Positions 10,445 to 64,000 of a DNA stretch of 64,000 nt are shown here, one piece after another. The position numbers and the translations under genes were made by a program. Source of the stretch: Acetatifactor sp. (GTDB lineage: Bacteria; Bacillota; Clostridia; Lachnospirales; Lachnospiraceae); assembly GCA_045544275.1 (NCBI GenBank), contig JAZPYS010000084.1, forward strand, positions 1,471 to 65,470, read 5' to 3'. How positions within the stretch are numbered: the stretch's first letter is position 1; the number at the start of each line of letters is the position of its first letter. The notes below the pieces were generated by a model. That model saw only the letters and a program-made list of their open reading frames with translations, was not told the origin of the DNA and searched no databases.

Positions 10445-10480
10445 ATATGCATGGCTTATATAGAAAGGGGAAATGAAAGG

Positions 10481-10767: not shown

Positions 10768-10778
10768 GTATTATATAT

Positions 10779-15029: not shown

Positions 15030-15310
15030 GTGTAAAACCTCCATGCACATCGCCATAAAAAGCATTAGGTGCTTAGCGAAAAAAGCATAACTGATATAGA
15101 TTATGTATATAAATAAAAAACAATACATGAAATTATACGACTTTATATATTTAAAATCAAATCAAATAAAAAATCTTAGCTGTAAATTTACCGCAAAAAA
15201 AATATTAAATTATTATGAAAGTCATGAAAAAATTTTTGCTTTATTTACTTATGCGGTACAAAATGGTAAAATAATTGGGCAATACTAAATTATATTACGC
15301 TGGAGGCTTT

Positions 15311-16186: not shown

Positions 16187-16243
16187 TGTAACGGTTGGAT
16201 TGGAAAATATTACTATATTTATGAAGGGGAAAGTGTAGGATAC

Positions 16244-16984: not shown

Positions 16985-16987
16985 CAT

Positions 16988-17413: not shown

Positions 17414-17439
17414 ATAGACAGACAGGAACGTTTAAGGAG

Positions 17440-42057: not shown

Positions 42058-42082
42058 ATAATAGATGTCGGAGGAATAAGTC

Positions 42083-42883: not shown

Positions 42884-42898
42884 AGGAGGGTGTGGAGA

Positions 42899-45270: not shown

Positions 45271-45334
45271 TTCTCCCCAACCAAAGCTGGAGAGTTTTAA
45301 TAAAAACAAATTAAAATCATGGAGGTAGGAAACG

Positions 45335-46708: not shown

Positions 46709-46714
46709 AATCAA

Positions 46715-46751
46715 AAAAAGGATGTCATGCCAATGGCATGGCATCCTTTTT
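46715..46751 (+). terminator. Stem-loop after the binding-protein gene (partial terminator or mRNA stabiliser)
   Basis: AAAAAGGATGTCATGCCA-A-TGGCATGGCATCCTTTTT. Confidence 0.75.
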
Positions 46752-46771
46752 GGGAAAGGAGTGCTTTTGAC

Positions 46772-47656
46772 ATGAAAAAGAAAAAGAGAAGAGATTTAAT
46801 CCATGGATATTTATTCATTGCACCATTTCTGATAGGATTATTTGTTTTTACCATATTTCCAATTGGCTATTCCTTATATCTTTCTTTTACAGATTATAAT
46901 GTTTTAAGTCCGGCCAAATGGATTGGTATCAAAAATTATATTAAAATGTTTACGATGGACGAAACAGTAAGGATATCTTTAAAAGTAACTTTTAATTTTG
47001 CACTGGTACAGGTTCCATTAAGGTTATCAGTGGCTCTTTTTGTGGCTGTGTTAATGGCAAAAAAGACTAAATTGACAGGTGTTTATCGTGTGGCCTTTTA
47101 TATTCCATCCTTGTTAGGTGGAACAGTGGCGGTAGCGATTACATGGAAAAAGTTGTGGGACAACCATGGTGTGATCAATGCTATTTTAGAAAGAATAGGA
47201 TTGCCAACGCATAACTGGCTCAATGATGTGCATACGGCATTATATGTATTGATTTTGTTGGGAGTGTGGCAGTTTGGCAGTACTATGTTAATTTTCCTTG
47301 CGGGATTGAATGATATTCCTTCTTCCTTAGTAGAAGCTGCAATTATCGATGGTGCTGGCCCCATAGCTTGTTTTTTCAAAGTAAAGTTGCCTATGCTGAC
47401 GCCTGTTTTGTTTTATAATTTGGTCAACTCAATAATCGGAAGTCTGCAGGCATTTAATTCCGCATATTTGATTTCTAGTGGAGCACCTATGAATTCAACT
47501 ATGTATTATGGATTGTATCAATATAAACAGGGCTTTGAATATATGAACATGGGATATGCTTCTGCGATGGCCTGGGTTATGATGTTGATCATTTTGGCAA
47601 TGACTGCATTGGTATTTAAGTCTTCATCTGCCTGGGTATATTATCAGGGTGAGTAA
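46772..47656 (+). CDS. Carbohydrate ABC transporter permease
   Basis: EAA loop LVEAAIIDGAG, MGYASAMAW. Confidence 0.92.
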   Translation: MKKKKRRDLIHGYLFIAPFLIGLFVFTIFPIGYSLYLSFTDYNVLSPAKWIGIKNYIKMFTMDETVRISLKVTFNFALVQVPLRLSVALFVAVLMAKKTKLTGVYRVAFYIPSLLGGTVAVAITWKKLWDNHGVINAILERIGLPTHNWLNDVHTALYVLILLGVWQFGSTMLIFLAGLNDIPSSLVEAAIIDGAGPIACFFKVKLPMLTPVLFYNLVNSIIGSLQAFNSAYLISSGAPMNSTMYYGLYQYKQGFEYMNMGYASAMAWVMMLIILAMTALVFKSSSAWVYYQGE

Positions 47657-47672
47657 GCAGGAGGTAAATTGA

Positions 47673-48506
47673 ATGAAAAGAACAATTAAAAGATACATTT
47701 ATCATATATGTATGATTTTGATTAGCCTTGTAATGCTTTATCCGTTGCTTTGGATGATATTTTCATCTTTTAAGCCGGAGCAGCAGATTATGTTGTCCAA
47801 GGGTTCATTAATCCCTAAGGAATGGACATTGGATCATTACATAAGAGGGTGGGGTGGTTCTAATCGGTACAGTTTTGCGGTTTTCTTTAAAAATTCTTTT
47901 TATATAGGAATTGTGAGAACTATTGGTAATACTTTGTCCTGTACATTGGCAGCATATGGTTTTTCCAGAATAAGCTTCAAATTGCGTAAGTTTTGGTTTG
48001 CTATTATGATTTCATGCATGTGTTTGCCGGGGATGGTATTGCAGATCCCTACTTACCTGATGTTCAACAAATTCGGATGGGTAGGCACATTCTTACCGTT
48101 ACTGGTTCCGGCCTTCTTTACAGAGTCTCACGGTATCTTTCTGCTAATGCAATTTATGAAGACGGTACCCAGAGAAATGGATGAAGCAGCAATGATCGAC
48201 GGTTGCGGACGTTTCAGAATGTTTTACAATATTATGCTGCCATTAATTCGTCCTTGTGTGGTAATGACAGCGGTAAATACCTTTATCGGTTCTTGGGGAG
48301 ATTTCTATAGTGCATTGATCTATCTGAACAAGCCAGATATGTATCCTGTGGCTTATGCTTTGAAATTGTTTACTGATGACTCCGGAAATGTTGTGGGACC
48401 ACCTTTGGCGATGAGTGTATTGTCTTTGGTTCCAATTATTATTTTGTTTGCATTTTTCCAGAAGCAGCTGGTAGAAGGTATCAGCACTACCGGCGTAAAA
48501 GGATAA
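47673..48506 (+). CDS. Carbohydrate ABC transporter permease
   Basis: EAA loop MDEAAMIDGC, AAYGFSR, FQKQLVEGI. Confidence 0.92.
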   Translation: MKRTIKRYIYHICMILISLVMLYPLLWMIFSSFKPEQQIMLSKGSLIPKEWTLDHYIRGWGGSNRYSFAVFFKNSFYIGIVRTIGNTLSCTLAAYGFSRISFKLRKFWFAIMISCMCLPGMVLQIPTYLMFNKFGWVGTFLPLLVPAFFTESHGIFLLMQFMKTVPREMDEAAMIDGCGRFRMFYNIMLPLIRPCVVMTAVNTFIGSWGDFYSALIYLNKPDMYPVAYALKLFTDDSGNVVGPPLAMSVLSLVPIIILFAFFQKQLVEGISTTGVKG

Positions 48507-48583
48507 AGCAGGGTGCGTTAGGAAAATTCTACAAAGAAGCTGGAATACTGACATTTGAAATTAGGTATGGTAAAATGTAAAGT

Positions 48584-50335
48584 ATGAAAAAGTTAAGGCT
48601 AAAAATACAAAATTTAAAATTATCAATAAAATTAACGTGCATGATCATTTTTACCTGCTTCGTTCTTTTAATTATGGAACTTTTGAGCAGGCAGAATGTT
48701 TATGATGCCTATGATGAACAACTGTACTTAAAGACGGCACAGGTGTGTATTTCTTATGCCAATCAATTGGAGACCGAGATTGACAAGATAGAAAATCTTT
48801 CTTTTTCGATTGTAGGAGATAAGGGAATACAGGAGAAACTGACCATTATAAAAAAGGATGCGAAGCCATATTATTTCGATGAGATGTCAGAGATAAGTGA
48901 TACTTTATATGGTTACTGCAGTGTAATGGAAAACAATGTTATTGCAGGGATTTTATCCGCAGACAGGGAGTGGATCGGAACGACGATAGAGCGTGAAAAC
49001 CTGGAAGAATATGTGGAAACCGCCTTGGAGAAAAAAGGTAAGATAACCATTTATTCGCAGAATAATAAGATGGGCATCTTTCGTGAAATACGTCAAATCA
49101 GTGGTCTTACCATGAAGCATCTGGGCATTCTTTTCATAGAGGTAAATCTACAGGAGTTGTTGCGTGATATAGAATACAGCTATGCTAAGAATAATGTGGT
49201 TCCGGATATGACTATATTTGATGGGGAAGAGTGTATTTATTCCTCTTCCAAAGAGGTGGTACAGACGCTTGTTGCAGAGAATGCAAGATTGATGGGGGAC
49301 CACTTTGTGATTTCCCACACCTCATCAAAGTTGGGATGGACATTTGTGTTAAGCATTCCTTACAGTGAGATCAACCAGTCCATTAAACAGGCAAATATGA
49401 GAGCTACCATATCCTGTGTTTTAGTTGCTGTCTTGGTTTGTATATTAAGCAGTAGTTTTGTATATTCATTGATGCCACATATTAATTATCTGATGAAGAA
49501 GTTTGAATTGTTTGGCAGCGGCATCATGCCTAAAGCAGAGGATTATCCATCCTATGAAGGACGTACGGATGAGTTTGGCCGGCTGCATAATCAGTTTGAT
49601 CGGATGTCCCAGGAGTATCAACGCCTGACTCAGGAGTCGTATGACAATATGCTTCTACTAAAGGAGGCACAGTTTCAACAGCTTCAACAGCAGATTCGAC
49701 CTCATTTTCTATTTAATACTTTATCTACAATTGTATGGACGGCATCGGAAAATGACGATGTGGAAACTGCCAAAATTGCAGACGCATTGGGGCGGATTTT
49801 AAGAAGTTCTTTCCGAAATGTGGATAAACTGGTTACCGTTCGGGAAGAAATAAAGGTAGTAAGGGACTATATGTATATTCAGAAGCTTCGCTATCAGGAA
49901 CGGTTACAGATGGAAGAGGAAATAGATGAAGAGGTTATGGAAGTAGTGATTCCTTCCTTTACGATACAGCCGATTGTTGAAAATGTGATTGTACATGTGG
50001 TAGAAAATAGCCTGGAAACTTGCAAAATCAGAATTACCGGACATGTTTTGGAGGATGAAGTACAGATTGTTGTGGAGGATAATGGTGGCAATCTGGACGA
50101 AGAGATTTTGAAAAAGCTGGAAGATGGTGAGATTTGCCCTAAGGGAAATGGGGTGGGTCTGAGTAATGTAAATAAACGAATCCAACTTGCGTTTTCCAAA
50201 GAGTATGGACTATCTGTTTCTACCCAAAGGCAATTCAGCAGAGTGACCATTCATCTTCCAAAGGATGATGTTGCAAAGGGGGGCATTGCTTTTTTATTTT
50301 CAAAGAGCAGAGAATTCCTTGAAAAAGGTTTTTAA
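48584..50335 (+). CDS. YesM-like sensor histidine kinase
   Basis: Two TM helices, HAMP (DEFGRL), QQIRPHFLFNTL H-box, QPIVEN, GVGLSNV. Confidence 0.92.
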   Translation: MKKLRLKIQNLKLSIKLTCMIIFTCFVLLIMELLSRQNVYDAYDEQLYLKTAQVCISYANQLETEIDKIENLSFSIVGDKGIQEKLTIIKKDAKPYYFDEMSEISDTLYGYCSVMENNVIAGILSADREWIGTTIERENLEEYVETALEKKGKITIYSQNNKMGIFREIRQISGLTMKHLGILFIEVNLQELLRDIEYSYAKNNVVPDMTIFDGEECIYSSSKEVVQTLVAENARLMGDHFVISHTSSKLGWTFVLSIPYSEINQSIKQANMRATISCVLVAVLVCILSSSFVYSLMPHINYLMKKFELFGSGIMPKAEDYPSYEGRTDEFGRLHNQFDRMSQEYQRLTQESYDNMLLLKEAQFQQLQQQIRPHFLFNTLSTIVWTASENDDVETAKIADALGRILRSSFRNVDKLVTVREEIKVVRDYMYIQKLRYQERLQMEEEIDEEVMEVVIPSFTIQPIVENVIVHVVENSLETCKIRITGHVLEDEVQIVVEDNGGNLDEEILKKLEDGEICPKGNGVGLSNVNKRIQLAFSKEYGLSVSTQRQFSRVTIHLPKDDVAKGGIAFLFSKSREFLEKGF

Positions 50336-50389
50336 TAAAAAACGGGGTGTCAAACTTGACACTACCAAAAAGAAATGAGGAATATTGAT

Positions 50390-51364
50390 ATGAAAAGAAA
50401 CTATTCTGTATTTATTTCTAATGTAGCATCCTGTATGGATCGCTATTGTGCTGCGTATGGCAGGGAGTTCTCTATTGAGGAGATGTTTGACCGGGTAAAA
50501 AGCATACCGCTTTTATCCGCAGTTGACATTGTGCTTACACAGGATTTTAAAAACAATCTTGATACCGTAAGAAAGTGTCTGGAAAAGACAGGTTTAAAGC
50601 TTGCTTCCGTGGCTGTAGATACATTTGCAAACCCAATCTACCAGAAAGGGAGCTTGTCTTCCGTTCATCCTGATGTTCGCAGACAGGCAATCAGTGATGC
50701 TAAATTCGCGGTTGACTTTGCAGCAGAAATGAACTGCAACATTGTAACGTTGTGGCCTGGACAGGATGGATATGATTATTTATTTCAGGCTGATTATATC
50801 AAGGAGCGCACACTCTTTTCAGACGCCTTAAAGGAAATTTGTGAATACAACCAAGATATTACCATTACATTAGAATACAAGCTGAAAGAGCCAAGAACAC
50901 ATTCCTACATAAACACGGTGGGTTCTGCCTTACTTATGTTAAATCATATCGGATGTGAAAATGCCGGAATTGCCCTTGATTATGGTCATGCTGCACTGGG
51001 GTATGAGACTCCAGCAGAAGCGGTTTCTATGTGCAAGATGTATGGAGACCGGCTGAAACATATCCACATCAACGATAACTACCGCCTTTGGGATGATGAT
51101 ATGATTGTCGGAAGTGTTCATACACTTGAATATCTGGAATTCATTTATTGGTTAAGAAGAACAGGTTACGCTGGTTACATGACGCTGGACCAGTTCCCTT
51201 ATCGTGAAGATGGTCGCGAGGCCGTAGAAGAGAGTGCCAAGTGGCTGGATGCCCTTGAGACTGTCATCGATCATGCTGATATGGAAGAGATTGGTGCGGT
51301 TATCAGCAAAAATGATGCCATCGAAGCAAGCAGACTGATGCGAAAAATATTGTTGGGAGTGTAA
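50390..51364 (+). CDS. Xylose-isomerase-family TIM barrel sugar isomerase
   Basis: LWPGQDG, EYKLKEPR, LDYGH, HIHIND...DDDM, LDQFP metal-site motifs. Confidence 0.8.
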   Translation: MKRNYSVFISNVASCMDRYCAAYGREFSIEEMFDRVKSIPLLSAVDIVLTQDFKNNLDTVRKCLEKTGLKLASVAVDTFANPIYQKGSLSSVHPDVRRQAISDAKFAVDFAAEMNCNIVTLWPGQDGYDYLFQADYIKERTLFSDALKEICEYNQDITITLEYKLKEPRTHSYINTVGSALLMLNHIGCENAGIALDYGHAALGYETPAEAVSMCKMYGDRLKHIHINDNYRLWDDDMIVGSVHTLEYLEFIYWLRRTGYAGYMTLDQFPYREDGREAVEESAKWLDALETVIDHADMEEIGAVISKNDAIEASRLMRKILLGV

Positions 51365-51409
51365 AACGGCTGATATGACATCATCATGTTATCAGGAATG
51401 GAGGATATT

Positions 51410-52135
51410 ATGGACAAATTACAAGAAAAGTACAAGGAGCAGATAGAGCAATTAGTAGAAGCGTGCCATCGTGTGGCAGAATTAAATTATGTTACATCCT
51501 CAGGTGGAAATCTATCTGTTTGTGTAGATGATAATACTATGCTCATCACGCCTACAAAGACTTTAAAAAGAAAAATGCGCTTTGAGGATATCTGTATTAT
51601 TGATTTAGACGGAAATATCTTGTTCGCACCGGAAGGTAAAAAACCTACTGGAGAATGGCCGTTTCACACAGCTATCATGAGAAAAAGAACGGATATCAAC
51701 GCAATTGTCCATGCACATCCACCAATTCTTACCGGATATGCAATTGCAAAAACAGGACAGATGGAGCTCCCTATCTTGCCTGAGCCGATTATTGAGGTTG
51801 GTCCGCTTCTAACTGTAAAATATGCGACACCATTGTCCCAGGAGCTGTCAGATAATTTTAAGGAAATGATTGACTTATCTAATGGTTTTTTGATGGAGAA
51901 TCATGGAGCTCTTTTTGTAAGCCAGAATGGAATTGAAGATGCAGTTGAACTACTTCATATGTCAGAATGCATGGCAGAATCGGCTTTTGTTGCACAGCTC
52001 CTTGGAAATATGAATCCAATTTCGCCGGAAGCTGTCAAAGGAATGGATGAAGTAATTCAGATTAGAAATCTGAATATTCCGGGAGCAAAAGGGAAGTATT
52101 CTTCTGCATTTGAATTATATCAACTGGGCAAATAA
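51410..52135 (+). CDS. Class II aldolase/adducin family (fuculose/rhamnulose-phosphate aldolase-like)
   Basis: GGNLS, PTGEWPFH, HAHP, ENHG zinc ligands. Confidence 0.85.
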   Translation: MDKLQEKYKEQIEQLVEACHRVAELNYVTSSGGNLSVCVDDNTMLITPTKTLKRKMRFEDICIIDLDGNILFAPEGKKPTGEWPFHTAIMRKRTDINAIVHAHPPILTGYAIAKTGQMELPILPEPIIEVGPLLTVKYATPLSQELSDNFKEMIDLSNGFLMENHGALFVSQNGIEDAVELLHMSECMAESAFVAQLLGNMNPISPEAVKGMDEVIQIRNLNIPGAKGKYSSAFELYQLGK

Positions 52136-52167
52136 TTATGACCGATACGAGAAAGGGGATTGAGTAC

Positions 52168-53817
52168 ATGGGAACTTTTTTACAAGGTAAGCTTACAGAT
52201 GGAATTTTGGCAGAATGTTATGAAAAAGTAATCCATACCTTAGTAGATACAATAGATACAAATGAACATGTCAGATCTTATATGGGGAAATATGATGAAA
52301 ATATATATTATTTCGCAGAACCAGAATTTTCTGGAAAATATCTCGATTTATGTTCTAAGATATATGGTAGATATAAGGATCAAAAAGCATTGGCAAATGC
52401 TACAAAAGTTGTAGAGAGCATTCTTGAAAATATGGATCAGGACGGATATATCGGATGTTATATTAAGGAGCAGGAATTTAAAGCATTTTCTGTCTGGAAT
52501 CAAATGTTCACGGTCATGGGGCTTCTCTCTTATTATAGAGTCACTGGTTATGAAGAAAGTATTAAAGCAAGTGAAAAATGTGTTTGTTATATCATGGATC
52601 ATTTTGTCGAAAAAGGAGTCGATATTTTTGATTGCCTCAATAATGGAACACAGCATAGCTGCATCTTGTTTGTACTAAGCGACTTATATCAAATAACAGG
52701 CAAGGAAAAATATAAAGATTATATGCTTTATATAATTGAAAGATTCAAGAATTCAGATCTGAATTTTTTGGAATTCAATGATATTTTTGAACTTAGAAGC
52801 CAAAAGGGAATCGAAATTTTGATTATCCTTATCGCAATCTTGAAATATGCCGAATTATTTGATGATAAAAAAGCAATTGAGAGTGTAAAAAAATACTGGC
52901 AGCAAGTCCATGATACGCAGATTCGTAATACTGGAAATGCGACCATGAATGAGGTATGGACAAAAAATGGAAATACCGCAGCAATGCTGGGCAAGGATCA
53001 AAAGCCAAATGAAACCTGCGTTGCTGTGGGGTGGATTGAAATCTCTTTATATCTGTTCAAATTGACGCGGGAAGCCAAATATTTGAATGTAATTGATAAA
53101 ACCATATATAACCATATTCTTGCTTCAATCTCTGAGAGTGGTGATGATTTTGCATATTATCAGCCAAATTACGGAAGCAAGGAAAGAGCAACGTACACAG
53201 AGCAGTACAAATGTTGCCGTTATAGAGGATTTACTTTATTCACGTATATGCCAGAGATGCTTTGCTACGAGGATGATGAGTATATAATCCCTTTGTTATA
53301 TACGAATGCTGAAATATTTTCTAATGGAGTTAAAATTGTAGAAAAGACGGGATATCCTTTTGGCAATGATTTAGAGTTTACCATTGATTCTGACAAATTG
53401 ATAAACAAAAAGTTAAAGTTAAGACTTCCTGAAGGTTATGAACTTACAGAATTTATAGTGAATGGAGCTGCCGTTCTTCCTGATGCAGAAGGCGGATATG
53501 TGGTATTCAATTTAAATGAAGGGCAGCATTATGATGTTAGATTGTGTTTTAAAGCTAAAATTATAGTTGAGAAGGGAACGATCGATCAAAAGGAAGTTGC
53601 AGCAATCAGTTATGGTCAGGTTTTACTCGCGATAAAGGACGAAAACGGGGATATTTGTATTAGCAAGGATAATATAGCTATTGAGCAATTAGATAATAGT
53701 GACTTGGCATATATCCGTTTTGGTGGCAAGGGGATAAAAAATGGAGCAAAAATCAATATCGAATTTACAGACTATGCTTCTGCAGATGGGTATAGAGTGT
53801 GGATCCCATTATTATGA
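52168..53817 (+). CDS. GH127/GH146-like glycoside hydrolase (beta-L-arabinofuranosidase clan)
   Basis: SGKYLD, DGYIG, NEVW, ETCVAVGW and CCRYRG cysteine motifs, TGYPFG; no signal peptide (ORF could start at 52138). Confidence 0.8.
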   Translation: MGTFLQGKLTDGILAECYEKVIHTLVDTIDTNEHVRSYMGKYDENIYYFAEPEFSGKYLDLCSKIYGRYKDQKALANATKVVESILENMDQDGYIGCYIKEQEFKAFSVWNQMFTVMGLLSYYRVTGYEESIKASEKCVCYIMDHFVEKGVDIFDCLNNGTQHSCILFVLSDLYQITGKEKYKDYMLYIIERFKNSDLNFLEFNDIFELRSQKGIEILIILIAILKYAELFDDKKAIESVKKYWQQVHDTQIRNTGNATMNEVWTKNGNTAAMLGKDQKPNETCVAVGWIEISLYLFKLTREAKYLNVIDKTIYNHILASISESGDDFAYYQPNYGSKERATYTEQYKCCRYRGFTLFTYMPEMLCYEDDEYIIPLLYTNAEIFSNGVKIVEKTGYPFGNDLEFTIDSDKLINKKLKLRLPEGYELTEFIVNGAAVLPDAEGGYVVFNLNEGQHYDVRLCFKAKIIVEKGTIDQKEVAAISYGQVLLAIKDENGDICISKDNIAIEQLDNSDLAYIRFGGKGIKNGAKINIEFTDYASADGYRVWIPLL

Positions 53818-54129: not shown

Positions 54130-55146
54130 ATGATTAAAGTAATGTTAGTGGATGACGAGGCAATTGGCAGGCAGGCCATACGGCGATTGGTGCCCTGGGA
54201 AGAACTGGGGCTTAGCTTGATCGGGAATTGTGCCAATGCAGTGGAAGCGTTGCATGAGATGACCGAAGAAATGCCGGATATATTAATAACAGATATCAAA
54301 ATGCCCATTATAAATGGTATTGAATTGATCGGTAAAGCGAAAGCTATGTATCCATTACTTCAATGTGTGATTATATCCGGATATGATGAGTTCCCATTGG
54401 CTCAGGCTGCCATGATGGAAGGTGTAAAGCATTACTTGTTAAAGCCTTGTATGAAAGATGATGTGGTTGAGGTTCTTAAGAAGTGTATTGAGGAAATTAG
54501 CAAATTAAAGAAAGACTCTTTGGTGCATGGAGATGCAAGAAATGCCATCTTGGATAAGCTGGTGTGGGATTTTAAGAATCTGTCACTGGAGAATGATGCA
54601 GAAGAACAGATCAGACAACTGATGCTCCACTATGGCGAAGATAAAAGTCTGCTTCGAGAGGCGGCAGTGGCATTGATTGTAAGATATTGGCCAGAGGCAC
54701 AGGGTGAGAAGGCCATGAGTCTGATGAGCAAGCTATTTAATGACCGGGAGGATATTTATGCTTATGTGGCAAAGATTCTTACGGAAAGCGAGATACTTGT
54801 CGGAGAGAAGGAGTCTTTTGTAGTCAAGGTGAAGAGCTATGTGGACAGCAATTACGGACAAAGCAATCTTTCGTTACAATATGTTGCCGATAATGTGGTA
54901 AATATGGACGCAAAGCATGTTGGCAGGAAATTTCGTCAAGAAGTAGGAGTTAAATTTAATGACTATCTTTTGAAAGTAAGAATTGAACAGGCCATTCACA
55001 TGCTGGGTTCTCCAAATAACTACAAAATGTATGAGATTGCGGAAACAGTAGGTCTTGGAAATAATGTGCAGTATTTTTATCAGCTTTTCAAACGCTATAC
55101 CGGAATGACACCCCGGGAATATAAAGAAGATGTGTTCCGACTTTGA
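54130..55146 (+). CDS. YesN-like response regulator (REC + AraC HTH)
   Basis: VDDE, ITDIKMP phospho-Asp, K in LLKP, C-terminal AraC HTH (YEIAETVG...FKRYTGMTP). Confidence 0.92.
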   Translation: MIKVMLVDDEAIGRQAIRRLVPWEELGLSLIGNCANAVEALHEMTEEMPDILITDIKMPIINGIELIGKAKAMYPLLQCVIISGYDEFPLAQAAMMEGVKHYLLKPCMKDDVVEVLKKCIEEISKLKKDSLVHGDARNAILDKLVWDFKNLSLENDAEEQIRQLMLHYGEDKSLLREAAVALIVRYWPEAQGEKAMSLMSKLFNDREDIYAYVAKILTESEILVGEKESFVVKVKSYVDSNYGQSNLSLQYVADNVVNMDAKHVGRKFRQEVGVKFNDYLLKVRIEQAIHMLGSPNNYKMYEIAETVGLGNNVQYFYQLFKRYTGMTPREYKEDVFRL

Positions 55147-55165
55147 ATAAGGGAAAGGAATTATA

Positions 55166-56308
55166 ATGAAATATACAATTTATGCAGAAAAAATGCTGCT
55201 AAATGATGAATGGCAGAAGGATGTAGTTGTGGATATTTGCGATGGCAAGATTCAAAATATAGCAGTTGGACAAAGGATGGATACAGACTATCATGTTGCA
55301 TATCTTACGCCGGGAATCATAGATAATCATATTCATGGAGGCAATTTGTTTCATATTCATGAAGCAAGCGTAGCGTCTATGGAGGAGTGGTTGGTACATT
55401 TGACAAAGGCAGGGGTGGCGGCGGTTATGTCAACGCCTTATGGAAGCTACGAGCAAATCAGACATGGACTTGCGATTACCAAAGCAGTTATGGAGCGTCA
55501 GATAGCGGGAGAGTGTGGAGGTGCACTGCTTTTAGGAGTTCATTTAGAGGGGCCTTTTTTTAATGTTTCTCGCAAAGGAGCAATCGAGGAAAACACCATA
55601 TTAAATCCGTCTGTAGCAGAGTATAATCTGTTGGTGCAGGGATATGAGGATATTGTTAAAGAGATGTCTATTGCTCCGGAGAGGGAGGGGGCAGAAGAGT
55701 TGATCCAATACCTTCGTAAACACAATGTTAAGGTACTTGCCGGCCATACTGACTGTACATATGATAAGGCTCTTCAGGCATTTTCCTGGGGAGTGGGAGC
55801 TATCTGCCATACCTTTAATGGTGCGAGACCAATCCATCATCGGGAGCCGGGGATTGTTGCGGCAGCACTCAGTACTCCCCAAATTTACTGTGAGATGATT
55901 GGTGATCTTGAGCATCTGCATCCGGGAACGATTCAGGTTATGATGCATTGTAAAGGGAATAAAAAGCTTATGTTAATTTCTGATGCTGTAAAGACAACAA
56001 ATTGCCCGGATGGCATTTATAAAAATGGATCGGAGCTGGTAGAGGTCAGAGAGGGGGTCTCCAGAGATAAGGAGATGGGATGCCTCTGCGGTGGTGGATG
56101 TTACAGCGCAAAGTCTGTAAAAAAGCTGGTAGAGATCGGTATTGATTTTAAAGATGCTGTTATGGCAGCCAGTACAAATCCAGCAAGGTGGCTTGGATTG
56201 GATTGCATGCCGGAAACAGGCAAGAGAGCATTCTTACAGGGATGGTCGGATAAATACCAGCCGGAGAATGTAATTTTGGGAGACAATATATATGAATGTA
56301 CTATATAA
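55166..56308 (+). CDS. nagA: N-acetylglucosamine-6-phosphate deacetylase family
   Basis: PGIIDNHIHG, HLEGPF, GHT, HTFNG, LISDA, NPAR. Confidence 0.85.
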   Translation: MKYTIYAEKMLLNDEWQKDVVVDICDGKIQNIAVGQRMDTDYHVAYLTPGIIDNHIHGGNLFHIHEASVASMEEWLVHLTKAGVAAVMSTPYGSYEQIRHGLAITKAVMERQIAGECGGALLLGVHLEGPFFNVSRKGAIEENTILNPSVAEYNLLVQGYEDIVKEMSIAPEREGAEELIQYLRKHNVKVLAGHTDCTYDKALQAFSWGVGAICHTFNGARPIHHREPGIVAAALSTPQIYCEMIGDLEHLHPGTIQVMMHCKGNKKLMLISDAVKTTNCPDGIYKNGSELVEVREGVSRDKEMGCLCGGGCYSAKSVKKLVEIGIDFKDAVMAASTNPARWLGLDCMPETGKRAFLQGWSDKYQPENVILGDNIYECTI

Positions 56309-57206
56309 GAGAAATTCTTTACAGAATATGTATGCAATTACTGCAATATGTATTTGGTCCACATCGGCAGCTTTGATAAAAAGTCTTTTAAACAGTATTC
56401 CGAATTTTCAGGTGTTAGCTATAAGCAGCCTATGTGCTTCTGTTTTCTTGCTGATCATAAACATGTTTAGCGGAGATATCCGAGAATTAAAAAGATGTAC
56501 ATATAAGGATTACTTTTCCATGGCTTTATTGGGATTTTTAGGACTCTTTCTGTATTATGGCTTTTATTATTATGGTTTGTCTCAACTGTCATCTCAGGAG
56601 GCTTGCATTTTAAATTACCTTTGGCCCATTATGCTGGTGTTATTTTCTTATGTGATATTGAAGGAGAAGTTAACGACAAAAAAGATTGTTGCTATGGCAT
56701 TATCTTTTTTGGGAGTTGTTGTATTAACCATGGGAAGTAAAGATGCAGTAAATGGCAACAGACTTTTGGGCATCATCAGCTGTATTTTAGGTGCTGTTTG
56801 TTATGGCATATTTTCTGTGTTGAACAAAAAGCGAAATATGAACCAAAATATAACAATGATGGTTGCCTGGTCTATGACTGCTGTATGTGCATTTGTGTCC
56901 GGATGTCTGTTTGAAAAATGGGTAACCATTCAAGGTGTACAATGGATGGGTATTGCTTGGATCGGAGTAGGGATCAATGCATTGGCTTATTTGCTTTGGG
57001 CGTTGGCTTTAAAAGACGCAGGTAATACAGCAGTGATCGCGAATTTAGCTTTTTTAACACCTTTTATTTCTATCGTGATATCAGCTGTCTTTTTGAAAGA
57101 AGAGATCGGGATACAGGCAATCGCAGCTTTGGTGTTAATTGTCAGCGGCATATTGTTACAGAATATAAAGGTAAAGGGAAAAAATAGTGTATTGCATAGG
57201 AATTGA
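56292..57206 (+). CDS. EamA/DMT family transporter
   Basis: Ten hydrophobic segments in two repeats, ILNYLWP..LKEK, FLTPF..LKEE. Confidence 0.85.
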   Translation: MNVLYKRNSLQNMYAITAICIWSTSAALIKSLLNSIPNFQVLAISSLCASVFLLIINMFSGDIRELKRCTYKDYFSMALLGFLGLFLYYGFYYYGLSQLSSQEACILNYLWPIMLVLFSYVILKEKLTTKKIVAMALSFLGVVVLTMGSKDAVNGNRLLGIISCILGAVCYGIFSVLNKKRNMNQNITMMVAWSMTAVCAFVSGCLFEKWVTIQGVQWMGIAWIGVGINALAYLLWALALKDAGNTAVIANLAFLTPFISIVISAVFLKEEIGIQAIAALVLIVSGILLQNIKVKGKNSVLHRN

Positions 57207-58122
57207 TATCGGAGGAACCACTGTGAAAGCAGGAGTGGTTTCGGAAGAAAGAAAAATTGTACATAAAGCAAATGCACCTACGGTAAGAGGAGATGTGGAT
57301 AGTTTTGTAAAAAGTATTATTGATCTACTGAATGAGCTATTGGCGGGTGCACAGCTCAAGTTACAGGATATCCATAGGATTGGAGTAGGATGCCCCGGGA
57401 TTGTTGATTCAGAGACGGGGACCGTAGTGGATGCCGATAATCTGGAATTAGTATATATACCTTTAAAGGCGCGGTTGGAGAGAGCGCTTATGATGCCGGT
57501 GACGGTCAATAATGATGCCAACTGTGCAGCATGGGGAGAGTATCTGGCTCTTTCCGATGATAGTATCAACAGTCTGGTCATGGTAACATTGGGAACAGGG
57601 ATCGGCGGAGGTATCATTCTGAACAAACGGTTATATACCGGTTGTGATGGATCTGCAGGTGAATGGGGATGCATGATTATGGAAACCAGTAGCTCGGAAG
57701 CATCATTAGGACCGAAGCAATACTGGGAGAATTATGCCTCTGCATCAGCGTTGGTAAGAGCTGCAGAGGAAGCAGCAGCAAAATGTCAGGATTCTCTGTT
57801 GAATGTGTTAATAAAGCAGAATGAAGGTAAGGCAGATGGTAAGCTGTTTTTTCAAGCGTTGGAGCAAAAAGATGAGACTGCAGTAACTGTTTTTGAAGAA
57901 TATATACATCGATTGGGTGATGGTCTTATTAATATTTTATATATTTTTCGACCGGATGTACTTGTTATTGGAGGCGGCTTAAGCCAAGCTGATTTGTTGT
58001 GGGAACCATTGAAGCAATATCTGGCTAAAAACAGTGATTGTTTTCAGAGAAACAGGCAAACCCGGATATGTAAAGCAGTACTGGGAAATGATGCAGGAAT
58101 TATTGGAGCTGCGTTTTTGTAA
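57187..58122 (+). CDS. ROK family sugar kinase (atypical)
   Basis: IDIGGT, NDANCAAWGE, TLGTGIGGG, LGNDAGIIGAA. Confidence 0.88.
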   Translation: MYCIGIDIGGTTVKAGVVSEERKIVHKANAPTVRGDVDSFVKSIIDLLNELLAGAQLKLQDIHRIGVGCPGIVDSETGTVVDADNLELVYIPLKARLERALMMPVTVNNDANCAAWGEYLALSDDSINSLVMVTLGTGIGGGIILNKRLYTGCDGSAGEWGCMIMETSSSEASLGPKQYWENYASASALVRAAEEAAAKCQDSLLNVLIKQNEGKADGKLFFQALEQKDETAVTVFEEYIHRLGDGLINILYIFRPDVLVIGGGLSQADLLWEPLKQYLAKNSDCFQRNRQTRICKAVLGNDAGIIGAAFL

Positions 58123-58175
58123 TTATGTATGTTGAAGATGATGTTTTGAAGCAGAGATGAAAGGAAGCGATAAAT

Positions 58176-59117
58176 ATGAAAATTTGTTTCATAGGAGACT
58201 GCGGACATGCATTTCAAACTTACAATGAAATGAAAATGTGTGAAGAGGCTGAGTTTGTAGGAGTTGCTCCTGCAAGTGAACATGATGATATAGAAGCGTT
58301 AAAGAAATATGAAATACCGATTTTTGATTCATATGAGAAAATGATAAAAGATGCTTTACCGGATATTGCAGTGATTTCGCCGGTGTTTGGTTTGACTGGA
58401 AGAATAATACAATATTGTGCAAAGCGGAAATTAGATATTTTTGCAGAAAAGCCAATTGCGTCAAATCTTACTGAACTAGTATCCGTTGAGAAAGCAATAA
58501 GGGAGAATAATGTACATTTCTCGGCTATGCACTTTTTGCGTTTTCACCCATCTTTTTATCATGCTCAAAAACAAGTGGATGGTGGTGCAATTGGTGAAGT
58601 GAGAATGATAACTGCTCAAAAAAGCTATAAATATGGTATTCGCCCGGAATGGTATAAAGAACGTGAATTATACACCGGGACGATTCCCTGGGTTGGAATT
58701 CATGCGATTGATTGGATTTCCTTTATTGCAAAAAAAAAGTTTAGGTCTGTAAGAGCTTTACATTGCGGTAATCCGGAAATGGTAGCCCTTTGTCAGTTTG
58801 AGTTAGAAGAAGATGTCATTGCTTCTATTAATATTGATTATATGAGACCGCAAACCGCTATGACACATGGGGATGATCGTTTGAGAGTAGTGGGGAGTAA
58901 AGGTGTAATTGAGGTGTTCAGTGATAAATATGTACTGATTAATGAAGAGGGAATACAAGAGTACCGCCCTACGGAAGCACCCAAACTGGCTTATGATTAT
59001 TTGTTAAGAAAAGAAGAAATTTCACCTGAAGAAATTTTTGAGATTACAAGGGTAGCACTTTGTACAAGGGAATCCGCAGATACCCATAAGGTTATAGAAA
59101 ATTTGACAGGCATGTAA
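58176..59117 (+). CDS. Gfo/Idh/MocA oxidoreductase
   Basis: AEKPIA, GAIGEV, WVGIHAID, VVGSKG. Confidence 0.85.
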   Translation: MKICFIGDCGHAFQTYNEMKMCEEAEFVGVAPASEHDDIEALKKYEIPIFDSYEKMIKDALPDIAVISPVFGLTGRIIQYCAKRKLDIFAEKPIASNLTELVSVEKAIRENNVHFSAMHFLRFHPSFYHAQKQVDGGAIGEVRMITAQKSYKYGIRPEWYKERELYTGTIPWVGIHAIDWISFIAKKKFRSVRALHCGNPEMVALCQFELEEDVIASINIDYMRPQTAMTHGDDRLRVVGSKGVIEVFSDKYVLINEEGIQEYRPTEAPKLAYDYLLRKEEISPEEIFEITRVALCTRESADTHKVIENLTGM

Positions 59118-59147
59118 AAATTTGCTTTTTCAGGGGATGAGGGAAAT

Positions 59148-60344
59148 ATGTTAACTGAAAAAAGTATTTTAGAATTGGCAGAAAAGAATGAAACGTATGT
59201 AAAAGAAATCTTTCGATGGCTGCATCAGCATCCGGAAGTGGCACATAAAGAACAGGGCACAAATCAATATCTACGGGAGCGGTTAGATGAATTAGGTGTT
59301 CCGTATGATATGCCAAAGGATAATATTACCATTGCAGTGATTGATAGTGGCAAAACGGGATGTACTGTGGGATTGAGATGTGATACCGATGCACTTCCCG
59401 TACAGGAAGAAACAGGATTACCATATGCTTCTGTTTATGATGGTGTGATGCATGCTTGTGGACATGATGCACATATGGCAATCGGAATGGGGACTGCAAA
59501 AATTTTAATAGAGAATATAGAACAATGGTCCGGCAAAGTGAAAATCATTTTTCAACCAGCGGAAGAAGGGGAAAATGGTTCAGATCAAGTGATTGGAACA
59601 GGATTAGTTGATGATGTGGATGTTTTTTTCGCAATTCATGTGTGGAGTCCTTATCCGAGTGGGGAGTTTCATGTATCCCCCATAACTGTCAGTGCCGCAG
59701 TAAATATGTTTACGATTCGCATTACAGGAAAAGGTGGGCATGGTGCGACTCCGGAAAAATGCGGCGATGCGATTGTGGCAGGTGCGGCGTTAGTTTCTTC
59801 TTTGCAGACAGTAGTTTCCAGAGCAATATCCCCAATGGAATCCGCAGTGCTGACAATTGGAAGCTTCCATGCCGGATCGGCAGGGAATATCATTGCACAG
59901 GAGGCTGTGCTTCAGGGCACACTACGGACATTAAATGAAGAAACGCGACAGAAAGCTTCGGAATTACTTTGCTCTTTTGCAGAACACACGGCAATGATGT
60001 ACGGATGCGAAGCAGAGGTGACGGATATACGTGTAAGTGATGCCGTTACTAATAATAAAACAGTGACGGAAATCGCTTTGAAATGTGCGAAAGAGCTGGT
60101 AGTATCGGATTTGATCAGGGAACAAAAGACAATGATGTTGGGGGATAATTTTGCCAATTATGGTTCAATTGCGCCATACTGTTATGTGCAGGTGGGAATT
60201 GCAAATAAAGAGAAGCGGACAGATTTTGCACATCATAACGGAAGATTTGCGGTAGATGAAGATGTACTGTGTCCATGTGTGGCATGGATGACAAGTTTTG
60301 CGATTGACAGTGCAAAAGAGATGGAAGCAGGATGGAGGAGATGA
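59148..60344 (+). CDS. M20D amidohydrolase (N-acyl amino acid hydrolase-like)
   Basis: LHQHPE, DTDALP, HACGHDAH, FQPAEE, GGHGA, AHHN. Confidence 0.9.
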   Translation: MLTEKSILELAEKNETYVKEIFRWLHQHPEVAHKEQGTNQYLRERLDELGVPYDMPKDNITIAVIDSGKTGCTVGLRCDTDALPVQEETGLPYASVYDGVMHACGHDAHMAIGMGTAKILIENIEQWSGKVKIIFQPAEEGENGSDQVIGTGLVDDVDVFFAIHVWSPYPSGEFHVSPITVSAAVNMFTIRITGKGGHGATPEKCGDAIVAGAALVSSLQTVVSRAISPMESAVLTIGSFHAGSAGNIIAQEAVLQGTLRTLNEETRQKASELLCSFAEHTAMMYGCEAEVTDIRVSDAVTNNKTVTEIALKCAKELVVSDLIREQKTMMLGDNFANYGSIAPYCYVQVGIANKEKRTDFAHHNGRFAVDEDVLCPCVAWMTSFAIDSAKEMEAGWRR

Positions 60345-60348
60345 TAAG

Positions 60349-61377
60349 ATGATGCAGGAAAATTGGACAGAAGAAAAGTTAAATAGCCTTTTGACAACAC
60401 CGAGTGATAATTTGGTGGAAGATATTCAAAAGATAAAAGGGGATATAATGGTGCTTGGTGCAGGTGGCAAGATGGGACCAACTCTTTGTGTACTTGCAAA
60501 AAATGCAGTCAAAAAAGCCGGAATTGAGAAGCGAATCATTGCAGTATCACGAGGAAGTGACAAAATTGCAACGAAATTGATGGTGGATAATGGCGTAGAA
60601 GTCATTGCCATGGATTTGCTTGATAGAAAGAAATTAGATGAGCTTCCTGATGTGGAAAATATTATTTACATGGCGGGCAAGAAGTTTGGCACAAATGGGA
60701 ATGAATGGCAGACATGGGCGATGAATTCCGTTGTACCGGCATTTGTTGCAGATCGTTTTCGCGGGAAAAATATTGTGGTTTTTTCATCTGGTAATATTTA
60801 TCCCATTGTCCCTATAAACAGCGGTGGATGTACGGAGACAGATAAACCTATTCCAAATGGAGAGTATGGAATGAGTACTCTGGCAAGAGAACGTATCTTT
60901 GAACATGCCTCTCATGAATATGGTACAAAAGTTCTTATGTATCGTCTGAATTTTGCGGTTGATTTACGGTATGGAGTTTTATTTGATGTGGCAAAGAATA
61001 TTTTAAATGAAGAGAAGATCCGGCTTTCAACACCATGCTTTAATTTTATTTGGCAGGGACATGCAAATGAAATTGCAATCAGAGGGTTACTTCATGCAAC
61101 TTCGCCGGCATGTGTTATGAATGTAACGGGTCCGGAAACTGTTTCTATTAAGAAAGCAGCTATTGAGCTGGGACAGTATCTGGGAAAAGAGCCAATGTTT
61201 GAAGGCGAGGAAGGTACTGATGCATATTTGAATGATGCATCCAAAGCAATGGAAATTTTTGGTTACCCGGAAGTTAGTGCAAAAACTTTGATAAAATGGC
61301 AGGCACAATATCTTTTGGATGGAGGACGTACTTTGGATAAACCCACACATTTTGAAGAACGAGGAGGAAGTTACTAA
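60349..61377 (+). CDS. NAD-dependent epimerase/dehydratase (extended SDR)
   Basis: LGAGGKMG Rossmann loop, SSGNIY, EYGMSTLARE; start moved to ATG 60349 behind GGAGG. Confidence 0.82.
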   Translation: MMQENWTEEKLNSLLTTPSDNLVEDIQKIKGDIMVLGAGGKMGPTLCVLAKNAVKKAGIEKRIIAVSRGSDKIATKLMVDNGVEVIAMDLLDRKKLDELPDVENIIYMAGKKFGTNGNEWQTWAMNSVVPAFVADRFRGKNIVVFSSGNIYPIVPINSGGCTETDKPIPNGEYGMSTLARERIFEHASHEYGTKVLMYRLNFAVDLRYGVLFDVAKNILNEEKIRLSTPCFNFIWQGHANEIAIRGLLHATSPACVMNVTGPETVSIKKAAIELGQYLGKEPMFEGEEGTDAYLNDASKAMEIFGYPEVSAKTLIKWQAQYLLDGGRTLDKPTHFEERGGSY

Positions 61378-62438
61378 TGGGTAGAAGTCAGAAAGCAATG
61401 GAGATTTTGCAGAAAGGGACAGTGATTCCGGCAACCCCGTTGGCACTTGATGAAAATAGAAAATTTGATGAAGCACAGCAGCGTATTTTAATGCGGTACT
61501 ACTTAGACTGTGGTGTGGGAGGAATAGCAACTGCTGTACATACGACTCAATTTGAGATTCGCGAACCGGAAGTAAATCTATTAGAACCCGTCTTAAAGGT
61601 GGTTTCTGAAGAAATTGAATCGTACGAAATGAAAACAGGAAAAGTCATTGTAAAAGTATCCGGTGTTTGTGGTCCAAAAGAACAAGCTGTGAAAGAAGCA
61701 AAACTTGCAAAGGCATATGGTTACGATGCAGTACTTTTAAGCCCAGGCGGATTAAATGATTTATCGGAAGATGAGCTGATAGAACGTACAGAAGCTGTTG
61801 CAAAAATTATGCCGGTTATTGGATTTTATCTGCAGACCGCAGTGGGAGGCAGAGCGTTTAGTTATAACTATTGGGAACGTTTGGCTGCGATCAATAATGT
61901 GGTTGCTATTAAATGTGCATCTTTCAATCGTTACCAGACACTTGATGTGGTACGTGCTGTAGCAATGTCTGACAGATGCGATGATATTACTCTTTACACA
62001 GGAAATGATGATAATATCGTAATAGACCTTTTAACCAAATATAAATTTGATAAAAACGGAAAGCTGGTAGAAAAATCATTTCAGGGCGGATTATTGGGGC
62101 ATTACTCAGTATGGACAAGAAAAGCTGTGGAAATTTTTGAACGTATACAGGAAGCAAAAAAGAAGGATGTGATTCCGGAAGGATTTCTTACATTAGCGGC
62201 AGAAGTTACAGATGCAAATAGTGCATTCTTTGATACTGCAAATGGTTTTGCAGGGTGTATTGCAGGGCTTCATCATGTATTAGTCGGACAAGGGTTGATG
62301 AGAAATATTTATTGTTTAAATCCACAGGAAACTTTGTCAGCAGGGCAACAAGAAGAAATTGCGAGAGTATATCGTATGTACTCACACTTAAATGATGATG
62401 ATTTTGTGAAGGAAAATTTAAAAAGCTGGAGTGAATAG
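61377..62438 (+). CDS. DapA/NanA-like (DHDPS family) class I aldolase/lyase
   Basis: VIPATPL, HTTQF, GFYLQ (Tyr), AIKCASF (Schiff-base Lys), LYTGNDD; TAATG coupling to the epimerase. Confidence 0.8.
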   Translation: MGRSQKAMEILQKGTVIPATPLALDENRKFDEAQQRILMRYYLDCGVGGIATAVHTTQFEIREPEVNLLEPVLKVVSEEIESYEMKTGKVIVKVSGVCGPKEQAVKEAKLAKAYGYDAVLLSPGGLNDLSEDELIERTEAVAKIMPVIGFYLQTAVGGRAFSYNYWERLAAINNVVAIKCASFNRYQTLDVVRAVAMSDRCDDITLYTGNDDNIVIDLLTKYKFDKNGKLVEKSFQGGLLGHYSVWTRKAVEIFERIQEAKKKDVIPEGFLTLAAEVTDANSAFFDTANGFAGCIAGLHHVLVGQGLMRNIYCLNPQETLSAGQQEEIARVYRMYSHLNDDDFVKENLKSWSE

Positions 62439-62440
62439 CA

Positions 62441-63388
62441 ATGGATAAAATTAAGATTGCGGTTGTGGGAACTGGGAGCATCGGAATAAGTCACTTGATA
62501 GCGATCGATCAGTCTGAAGTATGTGAATTGAGAGTGGTTTGTGATATTAATGAGAAGATTGCAAAGGAATTTGGAGAACAGTATAAGGTATCATATTGCA
62601 CTGATTACAAAGAAATTGCTTTAATGTCGGATGTGGATGCAGTAATCTTAAATCTACCTCATTGGCTTCATTGTGAAGTGACAGAATTTTTCTTGAATTC
62701 GGGGAAGCATGTACTTGTAGAAAAACCCATGGCCAATACAGTGGAAGAATGCGACAGAATGATAGCTGCTTCGGAAAAAAATGGAAAAAAACTAGCAGTT
62801 GGACATGTACAAAGATATTTCATGGCCAACCGCTTGGTTAAGGAGATTTGCCAATCCGGTCAGCTAGGGAAATTATGCCTTTATGAGGAATATCGTAGTG
62901 TTAACTATTTTGATGAGCGGCGACCAAAATGGTTTTTGGACAAAAAACTTTCAGGTGGCGGTATTGTTATGAATTATGGTGCACATGCATTTGACAAACT
63001 TTTTTATATCTTAGATTGTGATCCAAAAGAGATATGGGCAAATGTAGATAATATAAAAAATAGCGAGACGATAGAAGGACATGCACAGATTTTGGCAAAA
63101 TTTGAAAATGATGTCAGTGCAGCAATAACTTTTTGTGGATATGTGGGAAGTGGATATGAAGCAAGATATTATTTTACAGAAGGAACATTAAAAGTTGTTG
63201 ATGGAATGCATTTATATCAAAATGATGGAAAAGACGGGTGGAAGGAAATTCACAACATAGAAGATGGTGAATTTATGAAGAGGCAGTTAGAGGGTTTTTG
63301 TGCATTAATACGTGGCGAGAGTACAGATATTCCCACTGGTAAATATGGTAAAAAAGTAATTCAGACAATTGCACAAATTTATGATTAA
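62441..63388 (+). CDS. Gfo/Idh/MocA oxidoreductase
   Basis: VGTGSIG, PHWLH, HVLVEKPMA, SGGGIVMNYGAHAFD. Confidence 0.9.
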   Translation: MDKIKIAVVGTGSIGISHLIAIDQSEVCELRVVCDINEKIAKEFGEQYKVSYCTDYKEIALMSDVDAVILNLPHWLHCEVTEFFLNSGKHVLVEKPMANTVEECDRMIAASEKNGKKLAVGHVQRYFMANRLVKEICQSGQLGKLCLYEEYRSVNYFDERRPKWFLDKKLSGGGIVMNYGAHAFDKLFYILDCDPKEIWANVDNIKNSETIEGHAQILAKFENDVSAAITFCGYVGSGYEARYYFTEGTLKVVDGMHLYQNDGKDGWKEIHNIEDGEFMKRQLEGFCALIRGESTDIPTGKYGKKVIQTIAQIYD

Positions 63389-63541: not shown

Positions 63542-63571
63542 TTGACACAAAAACAAAAGATAAGTTATAAT
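63542..63571 (+). promoter_or_regulatory. Sigma-A promoter
   Basis: TTGACA-N18-TATAAT followed by GAGGTG RBS. Confidence 0.75.
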
Positions 63572-63589
63572 ATCATTGAGGTGGTAACG

Positions 63590-64000
63590 ATGCTGGATTA
63601 TTCAAAGTATCCCGATGGCGGAAGATTCTATTCGGGGGCGGAACGAAAAAAGTCAATTATAATAAATGGAAATGCTTATCTTGTCAAATTTCAAAAAAAT
63701 TCCAGAGAAGGTCTGCGGTTTAATCATGTTTCCGAATTTTTAGGCAGCCACATATTTTCTTTGCTTGGAATGGAAGCACAGGAAACACAGCTTGGATTGT
63801 ATCATGGAGAAAATGTGGTTGTGATAAAGGATTTTCTGGGTGAGGATGAGGTGTTTGTTCCCTTTAATGGAGTTGGGGACAGTTCTCTTGAGCAAGATAA
63901 AGAAAAGTACCAATATTCTTATGAAGATATCATTAGAATGTTAAAAGAAAATGTGAAGCTGACGGATGTGGAGCAAACCATGCATCAATTCTGGGATATG
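63590..64000 (+). CDS. HipA/CtkA-like kinase, N-terminal part (cut by the window end; not in ORF track)
   Basis: Open frame MLDYSKY...YSGAERK...YLVKFQK...SEFLGSHIFSLLG...V..KDFL: Gly loop, VKF lysine, helix C Glu and hinge typical of HipA-like kinases. Confidence 0.7.
   Translation, partial: MLDYSKYPDGGRFYSGAERKKSIIINGNAYLVKFQKNSREGLRFNHVSEFLGSHIFSLLGMEAQETQLGLYHGENVVVIKDFLGEDEVFVPFNGVGDSSLEQDKEKYQYSYEDIIRMLKENVKLTDVEQTMHQFWDM

Follow-up and report, generated by a model that had tools for sequence, protein, structure and literature searches.

Gene content of the locus

The window, a 64,000-nucleotide stretch of contig JAZPYS010000084.1 from Acetatifactor sp. (Lachnospiraceae), carries near its 3' end adjacent genes for an extended short-chain dehydrogenase/reductase (SDR) and a predicted class I lyase of the dihydrodipicolinate synthase/N-acetylneuraminate lyase (DHDPS/NAL) superfamily, a real, widespread and uncharacterised enzyme pair in a probably new pathway. 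The pair lies within a run of nine co-directional open reading frames (54130-63388) with intergenic gaps of at most 53 bp, in the order regulator, NagA, EamA, ROK kinase, Gfo/Idh/MocA oxidoreductase (Gfo), M20 amidohydrolase, SDR, lyase and another Gfo (Table 1). The SDR stop codon (TAA, 61375-61377) overlaps the lyase ATG in a TAATG (61375-61379), while the lyase stop and the ATG of the downstream Gfo are two bases (CA) apart, both as originally predicted. The M20 gene, which encodes the HACGH, PAEE and HH motifs, stops 4 bp ahead of the SDR start and is a further member of the run beyond the three genes first singled out. Tight operon-type spacing is by itself ordinary.

The SDR and the lyase are a conserved unit

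A neighbourhood analysis of the HTTQF lyase subfamily, suggested with the original prediction, identified the SDR as the fixed partner. Of 111 loci with enough flanking sequence, from several phyla, 110 have the SDR next to the lyase, as do 44 of 45 after de-replication at 70%, an adjacency far beyond chance. Relatives of the downstream Gfo at ≥44% identity occur in only seven other loci, all from gut Clostridia and six of them divergently transcribed, while a Gfo of any type lies within 4.5 kb of the pair in 50 of the 111. Given the near-invariant SDR linkage and the sparse Gfo relatives, the unit is the pair with variable accessories and not the SDR, lyase and Gfo trio initially proposed; the downstream Gfo is a lineage-specific accessory, for which an oxidative step is proposed.

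The lyase family is large and patchily distributed. All 8000 scored candidates belong to the subfamily, which therefore numbers at least 8000 clusters at 90% identity and is annotated at present only as 'dihydrodipicolinate synthase family'; 276 representatives, a good number of them fragments, reach E 1e-30 or better. The lyase was found in 68 of 201 Paenibacillaceae genomes sampled, in 2 of 301 genomes of the window's phylum and 2 of 201 of its family, in 6 of 301 Bacteroidota-level genomes (the Parabacteroides phylum), in 7 of 81 of a Planctomycetota-level sample, and on 20 plasmid records, including plasmids of Actinomycetota and Alphaproteobacteria. One Atlas cluster name includes RB7999 of Rhodopirellula, which is not mentioned in the literature searched. 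Within one lyase clade the pair comes with a GNAT gene in tandem; co-occurrence of the GNAT with an M20 or a serine dehydratase (Sda) was 0 of 13, a count that allows no conclusion because all GNAT loci fall in that single clade.

Several variants of the arrangement were observed. In a distant subfamily (E 2e-84) the pair occurs in reversed order, lyase then SDR (L164:8629-10727), which shows the partnership to be old. SDR-lyase fusions (P0275, P0277 and P0279) and SDR-GNAT fusions (P0272 and P0278) are on record; the four that were looked up each come from one contig, may be frameshift artefacts and serve as hints only. In Parabacteroides bouchesdurhonensis (L043:3139-11050) a tandem repeat of ~2 kb duplicates the SDR and a Gfo gene, with the lyase left truncated, and looks like an assembly artefact.

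A predicted Schiff-base lyase with a probably altered proton relay

The lyase matches Pfam DHDPS (E 1.7e-9), and its model (pLDDT 97.5) superimposes on human HOGA with Z 33.5 (root-mean-square deviation 2.1 Å, 290 residues aligned) and on other DHDPS/NAL members with Z 27-33, compared with Z ≤15 for unrelated barrels, at 12-22% identity to the solved members. Modelled fold and catalytic Lys and Tyr place it in the DHDPS/NAL superfamily, with active-site residues assigned from sequence alignment and secondary structure. K179 (76 of 81 lyases) and Y151 (74 of 81) align with the NanA and DapA residues, and D211/D212, conserved in the family, match the sugar-binding acid pair of NanA (D191/E192). 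The loop H55-T56-T57-Q58-F59 is present, with H/T-S/T/Q/F in ~75 of 81 aligned lyases; the loop, the Schiff-base Lys179 and Tyr151, all noted in the original prediction, are family traits rather than sequence errors. HTTQF had been read as standing in place of the G(S/T)TGE loop of its relatives, and that loop is indeed replaced, but the register was off by one residue: HMMER alignments to NanA and DapA set V54-H-T-T-Q58 on G-(S/T)-T-G-E, so that the carboxylate-binding Thr/Ser would be kept at position 56 and His55 would take the place of the relay Thr/Ser.

The canonical relay is formed by a Tyr, the Ser/Thr of a GXXG motif and a second Tyr contributed by an adjacent subunit (PMC9795676). 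The lyase family lacks this second Tyr, with L, F or M at position 126 and no Tyr at 124-126, and the lyase has neither the GXXG motif nor the Tyr-Thr/Ser-Tyr relay of canonical NAL-type aldolases. Scores against the NanA and KdgD NCBIfam equivalog models were 21-29 bits, below cut-offs of 278-382. Loss of the relay and of GXXG lowers the case that the lyase is a DapA or a NanA, not the case that it works like one. From these residues we infer an enzyme that forms a Schiff base with a hydroxylated 2-oxo acid and has had its proton relay rebuilt, most likely cleaving a 2-keto-3-deoxy acid; the retention of T/S56, K179, Y151 and D211/D212 agrees with the uncharacterised 2-keto-3-deoxy acid lyase that had been predicted. 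A role in lysine biosynthesis was rejected, as a strong DHDPS match lies elsewhere in the genome (C8), which holds another strong DHDPS-family match on C130.

A probable NADP(H)-dependent reductase without the usual lysine

The SDR matches Pfam Epimerase (E 1.5e-9), and its model (pLDDT 94.8) is a Rossmann fold with a GAGGKMG loop and Z 24-30 to extended SDRs. Residues N126, S146 and Y173 are invariant in 59 of 59 SDRs; the basic residues K41, K112, R180 and R199 are invariant too. The usual YxxxK site reads Y173-G-M-S-T177, as first described, and the absence of Lys at 177 is family-wide (0 of 59; Cys in 41, Val in 7, Ser in 5, Thr in 3 and Ala in 2). Following β2 are S67 (55 of 59) and R68 (58 of 59), where NAD+-bound epimerases have Asp. 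TerB was the best profile match (E 3e-9) and the top VIA-align match (20% identity), its Z of 30.3 being within 1 of several UDP-sugar epimerases. Both marks of NAD+-dependent nucleotide-sugar epimerases and dehydratases, the YxxxK Lys and an acidic residue closing β2, are therefore absent. The assignment as an epimerase or dehydratase was not borne out, since the Lys is missing, Ser-Arg follows β2 and the nearest solved relative is the NADP-dependent reductase TerB; the conserved residues point instead to an NADP(H)-dependent reductase of an anionic small molecule, probably a carbonyl reductase. A complex prediction for lyase and SDR scored 0.00, which gives no verdict, and was not used as evidence.

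Serine dehydratases and M20 amidohydrolases beside the pair

An Fe-S L-serine dehydratase lies within 6 kb of the pair in 35 of 111 loci, and an M20, from either of two clades ~25% identical to each other, in 36 of 111, usually directly following sdaAA. The neighbouring dehydratases belong to at least five types with 34-56% identity, both two-subunit and single-chain (Paenibacillus two-subunit, a second Paenibacillaceae type, clostridial two-subunit, clostridial single-chain and Prescottella/L161 single-chain), and the loci that bear them, Prescottella and L161 included, occupy distant branches of the lyase tree. Judged from these sequences, ordinary L-serine dehydratases appear to have been acquired separately beside the pair at least five times. 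The neighbouring dehydratase was the sole genomic copy in five of five genomes tested and above the equivalog cut-off in four of the five. Against the L-serine ammonia-lyase models TIGR00718 and TIGR00719, neighbours in other genomes scored 317.9 (cut-off 243.2) and 224.3 (cut-off 161.2). A specialised Sda paralogue is unlikely, as the neighbours score as ordinary enzymes and are often the sole copy.

Among the 68 lyase-bearing Paenibacillaceae, at least 32 have sdaAA within ~2 kb of the lyase (as a second genomic copy in G332, G340 and G473); by chance, a one- or two-copy gene would fall so close in far fewer than 1% of such genomes. The operon that recurs in this family consists of a regulator, SDR, lyase, sdaAB, sdaAA, M20, a short Gfo and a sugar ABC transporter. 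A 450-residue GGDEF-like/helix-turn-helix regulator (L139:10883-12235 and relatives) is encoded alongside the pair in 26 of 40 Paenibacillaceae loci. The window genome has sdaAB and sdaAA on contig C102, and the M20 is proposed to be an N-acetylserine deacetylase.

A proposed route to L-serine

From the observed folds, residues and gene linkage, we propose a set of reactions, a cofactor, a substrate and an order of redox steps in which the SDR and the lyase would form the fixed core of a catabolic route ending in L-serine. With somewhat less than even confidence, we favour a scheme in which an N-acetylamino 2-keto-3-deoxy sugar acid, released by a polysaccharide lyase, is converted to pyruvate and N-acetylserine, and then serine. 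Most of that confidence attaches to hexosaminuronates specifically, and it is a more tentative possibility that the pair represents a widespread, undescribed catabolism of N-acetylhexosaminuronic acids to N-acetyl-L-serine by a class I aldolase with a His relay and an NADPH reductase that lacks the lysine. Carbons C1-C3 of any 2-acetamido sugar make up a serine skeleton, and lyase action on an N-acetylhexosaminuronate would leave a 4-deoxy-5-keto acid, in effect a pyruvate unit joined to that skeleton.

The likeliest input would be 2-acetamido-2,4-dideoxy-5-keto-hexuronate, freed by a polysaccharide lyase from an N-acetylhexosaminuronic acid polymer, or else a related 5-acylamino-4-hydroxy-2-oxo acid. 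After uptake, and N-acetylation by a GNAT where the amine is free, one Gfo-type oxidation and one NADPH reduction by the SDR would take place on either side of the cleavage. The lyase would form a Schiff base at Lys179 and perform a retro-aldol cleavage, with His55 and Tyr151 relaying protons; the products would be pyruvate and an N-acetylamino aldehyde of three carbons (N-acetylaminomalonate semialdehyde or N-acetylserinal). The M20 would then hydrolyse N-acetylserine, and an Fe-S serine dehydratase (C102 in the window genome) would convert serine to pyruvate and ammonia. If the intermediate is a reactive aldehyde, this would account for the almost constant association of reductase and aldolase. 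Genes for acid-sugar dehydratases and aldehyde dehydrogenases are seldom found near the pair and do not recur there, in line with a substrate that has already reached the keto-deoxy level.

Several findings weigh against this scheme. After de-replication a serine dehydratase remains in 5 of 45 loci, an M20 in 10 of 45 and any Gfo in 22 of 45, the raw dehydratase and M20 counts having been inflated by related Paenibacillaceae. Many loci hold the bare pair, or the pair and a GNAT (Tistrella, Sulfitobacter), with no oxidase, M20 or lyase nearby, and the window itself lacks a serine dehydratase and a recognised PL12/21/35 gene. Polysaccharide lyases neighbour the pair in only 5 of ~111 loci, and those of their relatives that are characterised act on glycosaminoglycans with a nitrogen-free uronate. 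The transporters are of many kinds (sugar ABC, Liv-type, TTT, Nramp-like, MFS and SSS), and the scheme is built on folds, residues and linkage.

Neighbouring genes and competing explanations

Uronate lyases of three families (PL12/PL21/PL35-type) adjoin the pair. The window genome holds a paralogous pair on contig C118 (lyase 75% and SDR 80% identical to the window copies), in an operon that also encodes an ABC transporter, a 1664-residue PL35-like lyase (E 1e-63) with LamG and CBM32 domains, GH78, two Gfo, an M20 of the other clade, GH42, a xylose-isomerase-like barrel and two more Gfo. In three Paenibacillaceae (L140, L154 and L158) the pair has a heparinase III-like gene at its side, and in L004 a heparinase II-like gene (E 3.5e-58). 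A second PL35-like domain, 52% identical, occurs on C32.

These heparinase- and chondroitinase-like neighbours would also suit a nitrogen-free route, the reading nearest to the original prediction, in which the SDR would reduce the aldehyde of a lyase product such as 4-deoxy-L-threo-5-hexosulose uronate (DKI) or 4-deoxy-L-erythro-5-hexoseulose uronate (DEH) to a 2-keto-3-deoxy-hexonate. The lyase would cleave this into pyruvate and glyceraldehyde, while the M20 and the dehydratase would handle serine originating in a different portion of that polymer (such as a proteoglycan linker, O-glycosyl serine or a uronic-acid serine amide). The bare pair would suffice, as it appears to in many loci, ROK, NagA and AgaS would consume co-released N-acetylhexosamine, and D-2-hydroxyacid dehydrogenases occur in 6 of 111 loci. 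We regard this route as the main rival but nevertheless as unlikely: KduI/KduD and DEH-reductase routes already serve DKI and DEH, the recruitment of a serine dehydratase beside the pair at least five times and the GNAT-SDR linkage would go unexplained, and genes for threonine degradation, which mucin-type links would call for, do not recur beside the pair. Any nitrogen-free sugar acid as substrate would likewise leave the M20 and L-serine dehydratase neighbours unaccounted for.

Genes for NagA, NagB, AgaS-type SIS proteins or NanE lie within 9 kb of the pair in 12 of 111 loci, the window included, and the window ROK kinase probably acts on co-released N-acetylhexosamine. The NagA, AgaS and NanE neighbours are also consistent with an oxidative N-acetylhexosamine route, whereby a Gfo would oxidise C1, the M20 would deacetylate the resulting N-acetylhexosaminate (an N-acyl-alpha-amino acid), the Sda homologue would deaminate the product to 2-keto-3-deoxygluconate (KDG) or 2-keto-3-deoxygalactonate (KDGal), the lyase would cleave this and the SDR would reduce the glyceraldehyde. 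Gfo, M20, Sda and lyase would thereby act in a natural order, yet the adjacent dehydratases are ordinary L-serine ammonia-lyases, often the sole copy, acids derived from GlcNAc and GalNAc have the D configuration at C2, and the SDR, an invariant partner, would be dispensable, all of which makes the route rather improbable.

The Gfo genes bear on oxidoreductase-initiated (3-keto) glycoside cleavage, the alternative raised in the original prediction. A Gfo or the SDR would oxidise a glycoside, for instance GalNAc-O-serine, at C3, after which the Schiff-base enzyme would eliminate the aglycone, freeing sugar and serine. DgpA is among the best solved relatives of the window Gfo, loci L026, L028, L041, L053 and L160 have GalNAc-catabolic genes close to the pair, and xylose-isomerase-like TIM-barrel genes are the commonest extra neighbour (7 of 101 proteins); such barrels occur in some loci, the window's own being 9 kb upstream in another gene group. 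Little else favours this alternative, and we consider it highly improbable: the window Gfo scores 50.7/750 and 43.9/650 against the BT_2158 and BT_2159 models, far below the cut-offs, more than half of the loci have no Gfo, and the lyase retains the DHDPS/NAL 2-oxo-acid binding geometry. We know of no DHDPS/NAL member that acts on a 3-keto pyranoside. An explanation of some other kind is quite improbable. Mycosporines, dihydroxybenzoyl-serine, iminosugars, Tris and substituted prolines were considered and found no support.

Table 1. Features of the SDR-lyase operon in the window and of the paralogous operon in the same genome.
Feature	Position	Strand	Remarks
Predicted response regulator, AraC-like C-terminal region	54130-55146	+	From translation; opens the tightly spaced run
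NagA/AgaA-type N-acetylhexosamine-6-phosphate deacetylase	55166-56308	+	TIGR00221, 220 bits vs cut-off 225.65
EamA-family transporter	56292-57206	+	Pfam EamA
ROK-family sugar kinase	57187-58122	+	Pfam ROK, E 5.5e-63
Second Gfo/Idh/MocA oxidoreductase	58176-59117	+	Pfam match; 30 bp upstream of M20 gene
M20 amidohydrolase, N-acyl-amino-acid hydrolase type	59148-60344	+	TIGR01891, 320 bits, above cut-off
SDR	60349-61377	+	342 aa; GGAGG at 60334-60338
Lyase	61377-62438	+	353 aa; predicted DHDPS/NAL-superfamily class I, VH(T/S)TQF subfamily
Downstream Gfo/Idh/MocA oxidoreductase	62441-63388	+	315 aa; Pfam match
Paralogous operon	G000:C118 (locus L174) 1836-19835, and C118 19903-23498		

Scans for promoters and terminators across the locus returned matches at the level of shuffled sequence (41 vs 32±6). 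A perfect sigma-70 consensus (63542-63571) lies just past the operon and belongs to the next gene; the two genes that follow (63542-64000 of the window, continuing at 65012-66832 on G000:C84) read like a HipA-type kinase pair, and together these features probably mark the edge of a catabolic island. Upstream, an island at 40150-53817 encodes a pectate-lyase-like beta-helix protein, SGNH-type domains, a sugar ABC transporter, a histidine kinase, a xylose-isomerase-like barrel, a class II aldolase and GH127; it is possibly a separate pathway and is not a regular neighbour of the pair elsewhere. In other genomes, the pair occurs beside DUF993 (a divergent DHDPS-fold family, 4DNH), a xylose-isomerase-like barrel and Gfo or MFS genes (L177:1567-6964 and L178:339-6912), and in two unrelated genomes it is flanked by an enolase-superfamily-like protein with an FGFKGG motif (L152:5722-6996 and L161:11645-12994). 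The L152 protein had no NCBIfam or PDB match, and this protein is a candidate aldarate dehydratase.

Relation to known systems and implications

No characterised member of the pair or pathway was found in solved structures, family libraries or the literature, with most subscription journals outside the coverage; BT2813/BT2814, considered as possible members, could not be linked to the lyase subfamily. The lyase shares its barrel with human HOGA (3S5N), NanA (3LBC, 8U8W), E. coli YagE (2V8Z) and archaeal KDG aldolases (Z 27-33.5), has the Schiff-base Lys on β6, the Tyr on β5 and the Thr/Ser carboxylate ligand of DHDPS/NAL aldolases, and carries the G-x-D-D/E acid pair of NanA. Unlike these aldolases, it has V-H-T/S-T-Q for GXXG, a His relay and no second Tyr, is ~50 residues longer, and is paired with an SDR. 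Parallels are offered by KdgD (5-dehydro-4-deoxyglucarate dehydratase) with uronate dehydrogenase and by fungal galacturonate reductase with the aldolase GaaC, where a redox enzyme likewise works with a lyase of DHDPS fold on a 2-keto-3-deoxy acid derived from a uronate. However, the lyase scores 22-29 bits against KdgD cut-offs of 278-374, and in place of a dehydratase or semialdehyde dehydrogenase the pair has M20 and serine dehydratase neighbours. TerB (6D2V, 6ND7), an NADP-dependent reductase of terfestatin biosynthesis, shares the Arg after β2 with the SDR, but keeps YxxxK, is biosynthetic and acts on a quinone. Gfo proteins, and sometimes xylose-isomerase-like barrels, near the pair recall 3-keto-glycoside systems (BT2158/BT2159, DgpA and levoglucosan dehydrogenase), which in contrast use no class I aldolase or extended SDR.

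N-acetylhexosaminuronic acids are common in bacterial envelope polysaccharides. If correct, the proposed route would show how microbes recycle the amino-uronic acids of other microbes' capsules and walls, a fate not found described, and would constitute a new link between sugar breakdown and serine. The lyase would be a Schiff-base aldolase with a His-based relay, which may accept N-acylamino aldehydes, and the ligand of the GGDEF-like regulator would reveal the substrate. The pair is known from gut, soil and marine bacteria, and the analysis of its neighbours gives a short list of candidate substrates for an otherwise anonymous pair of genes.

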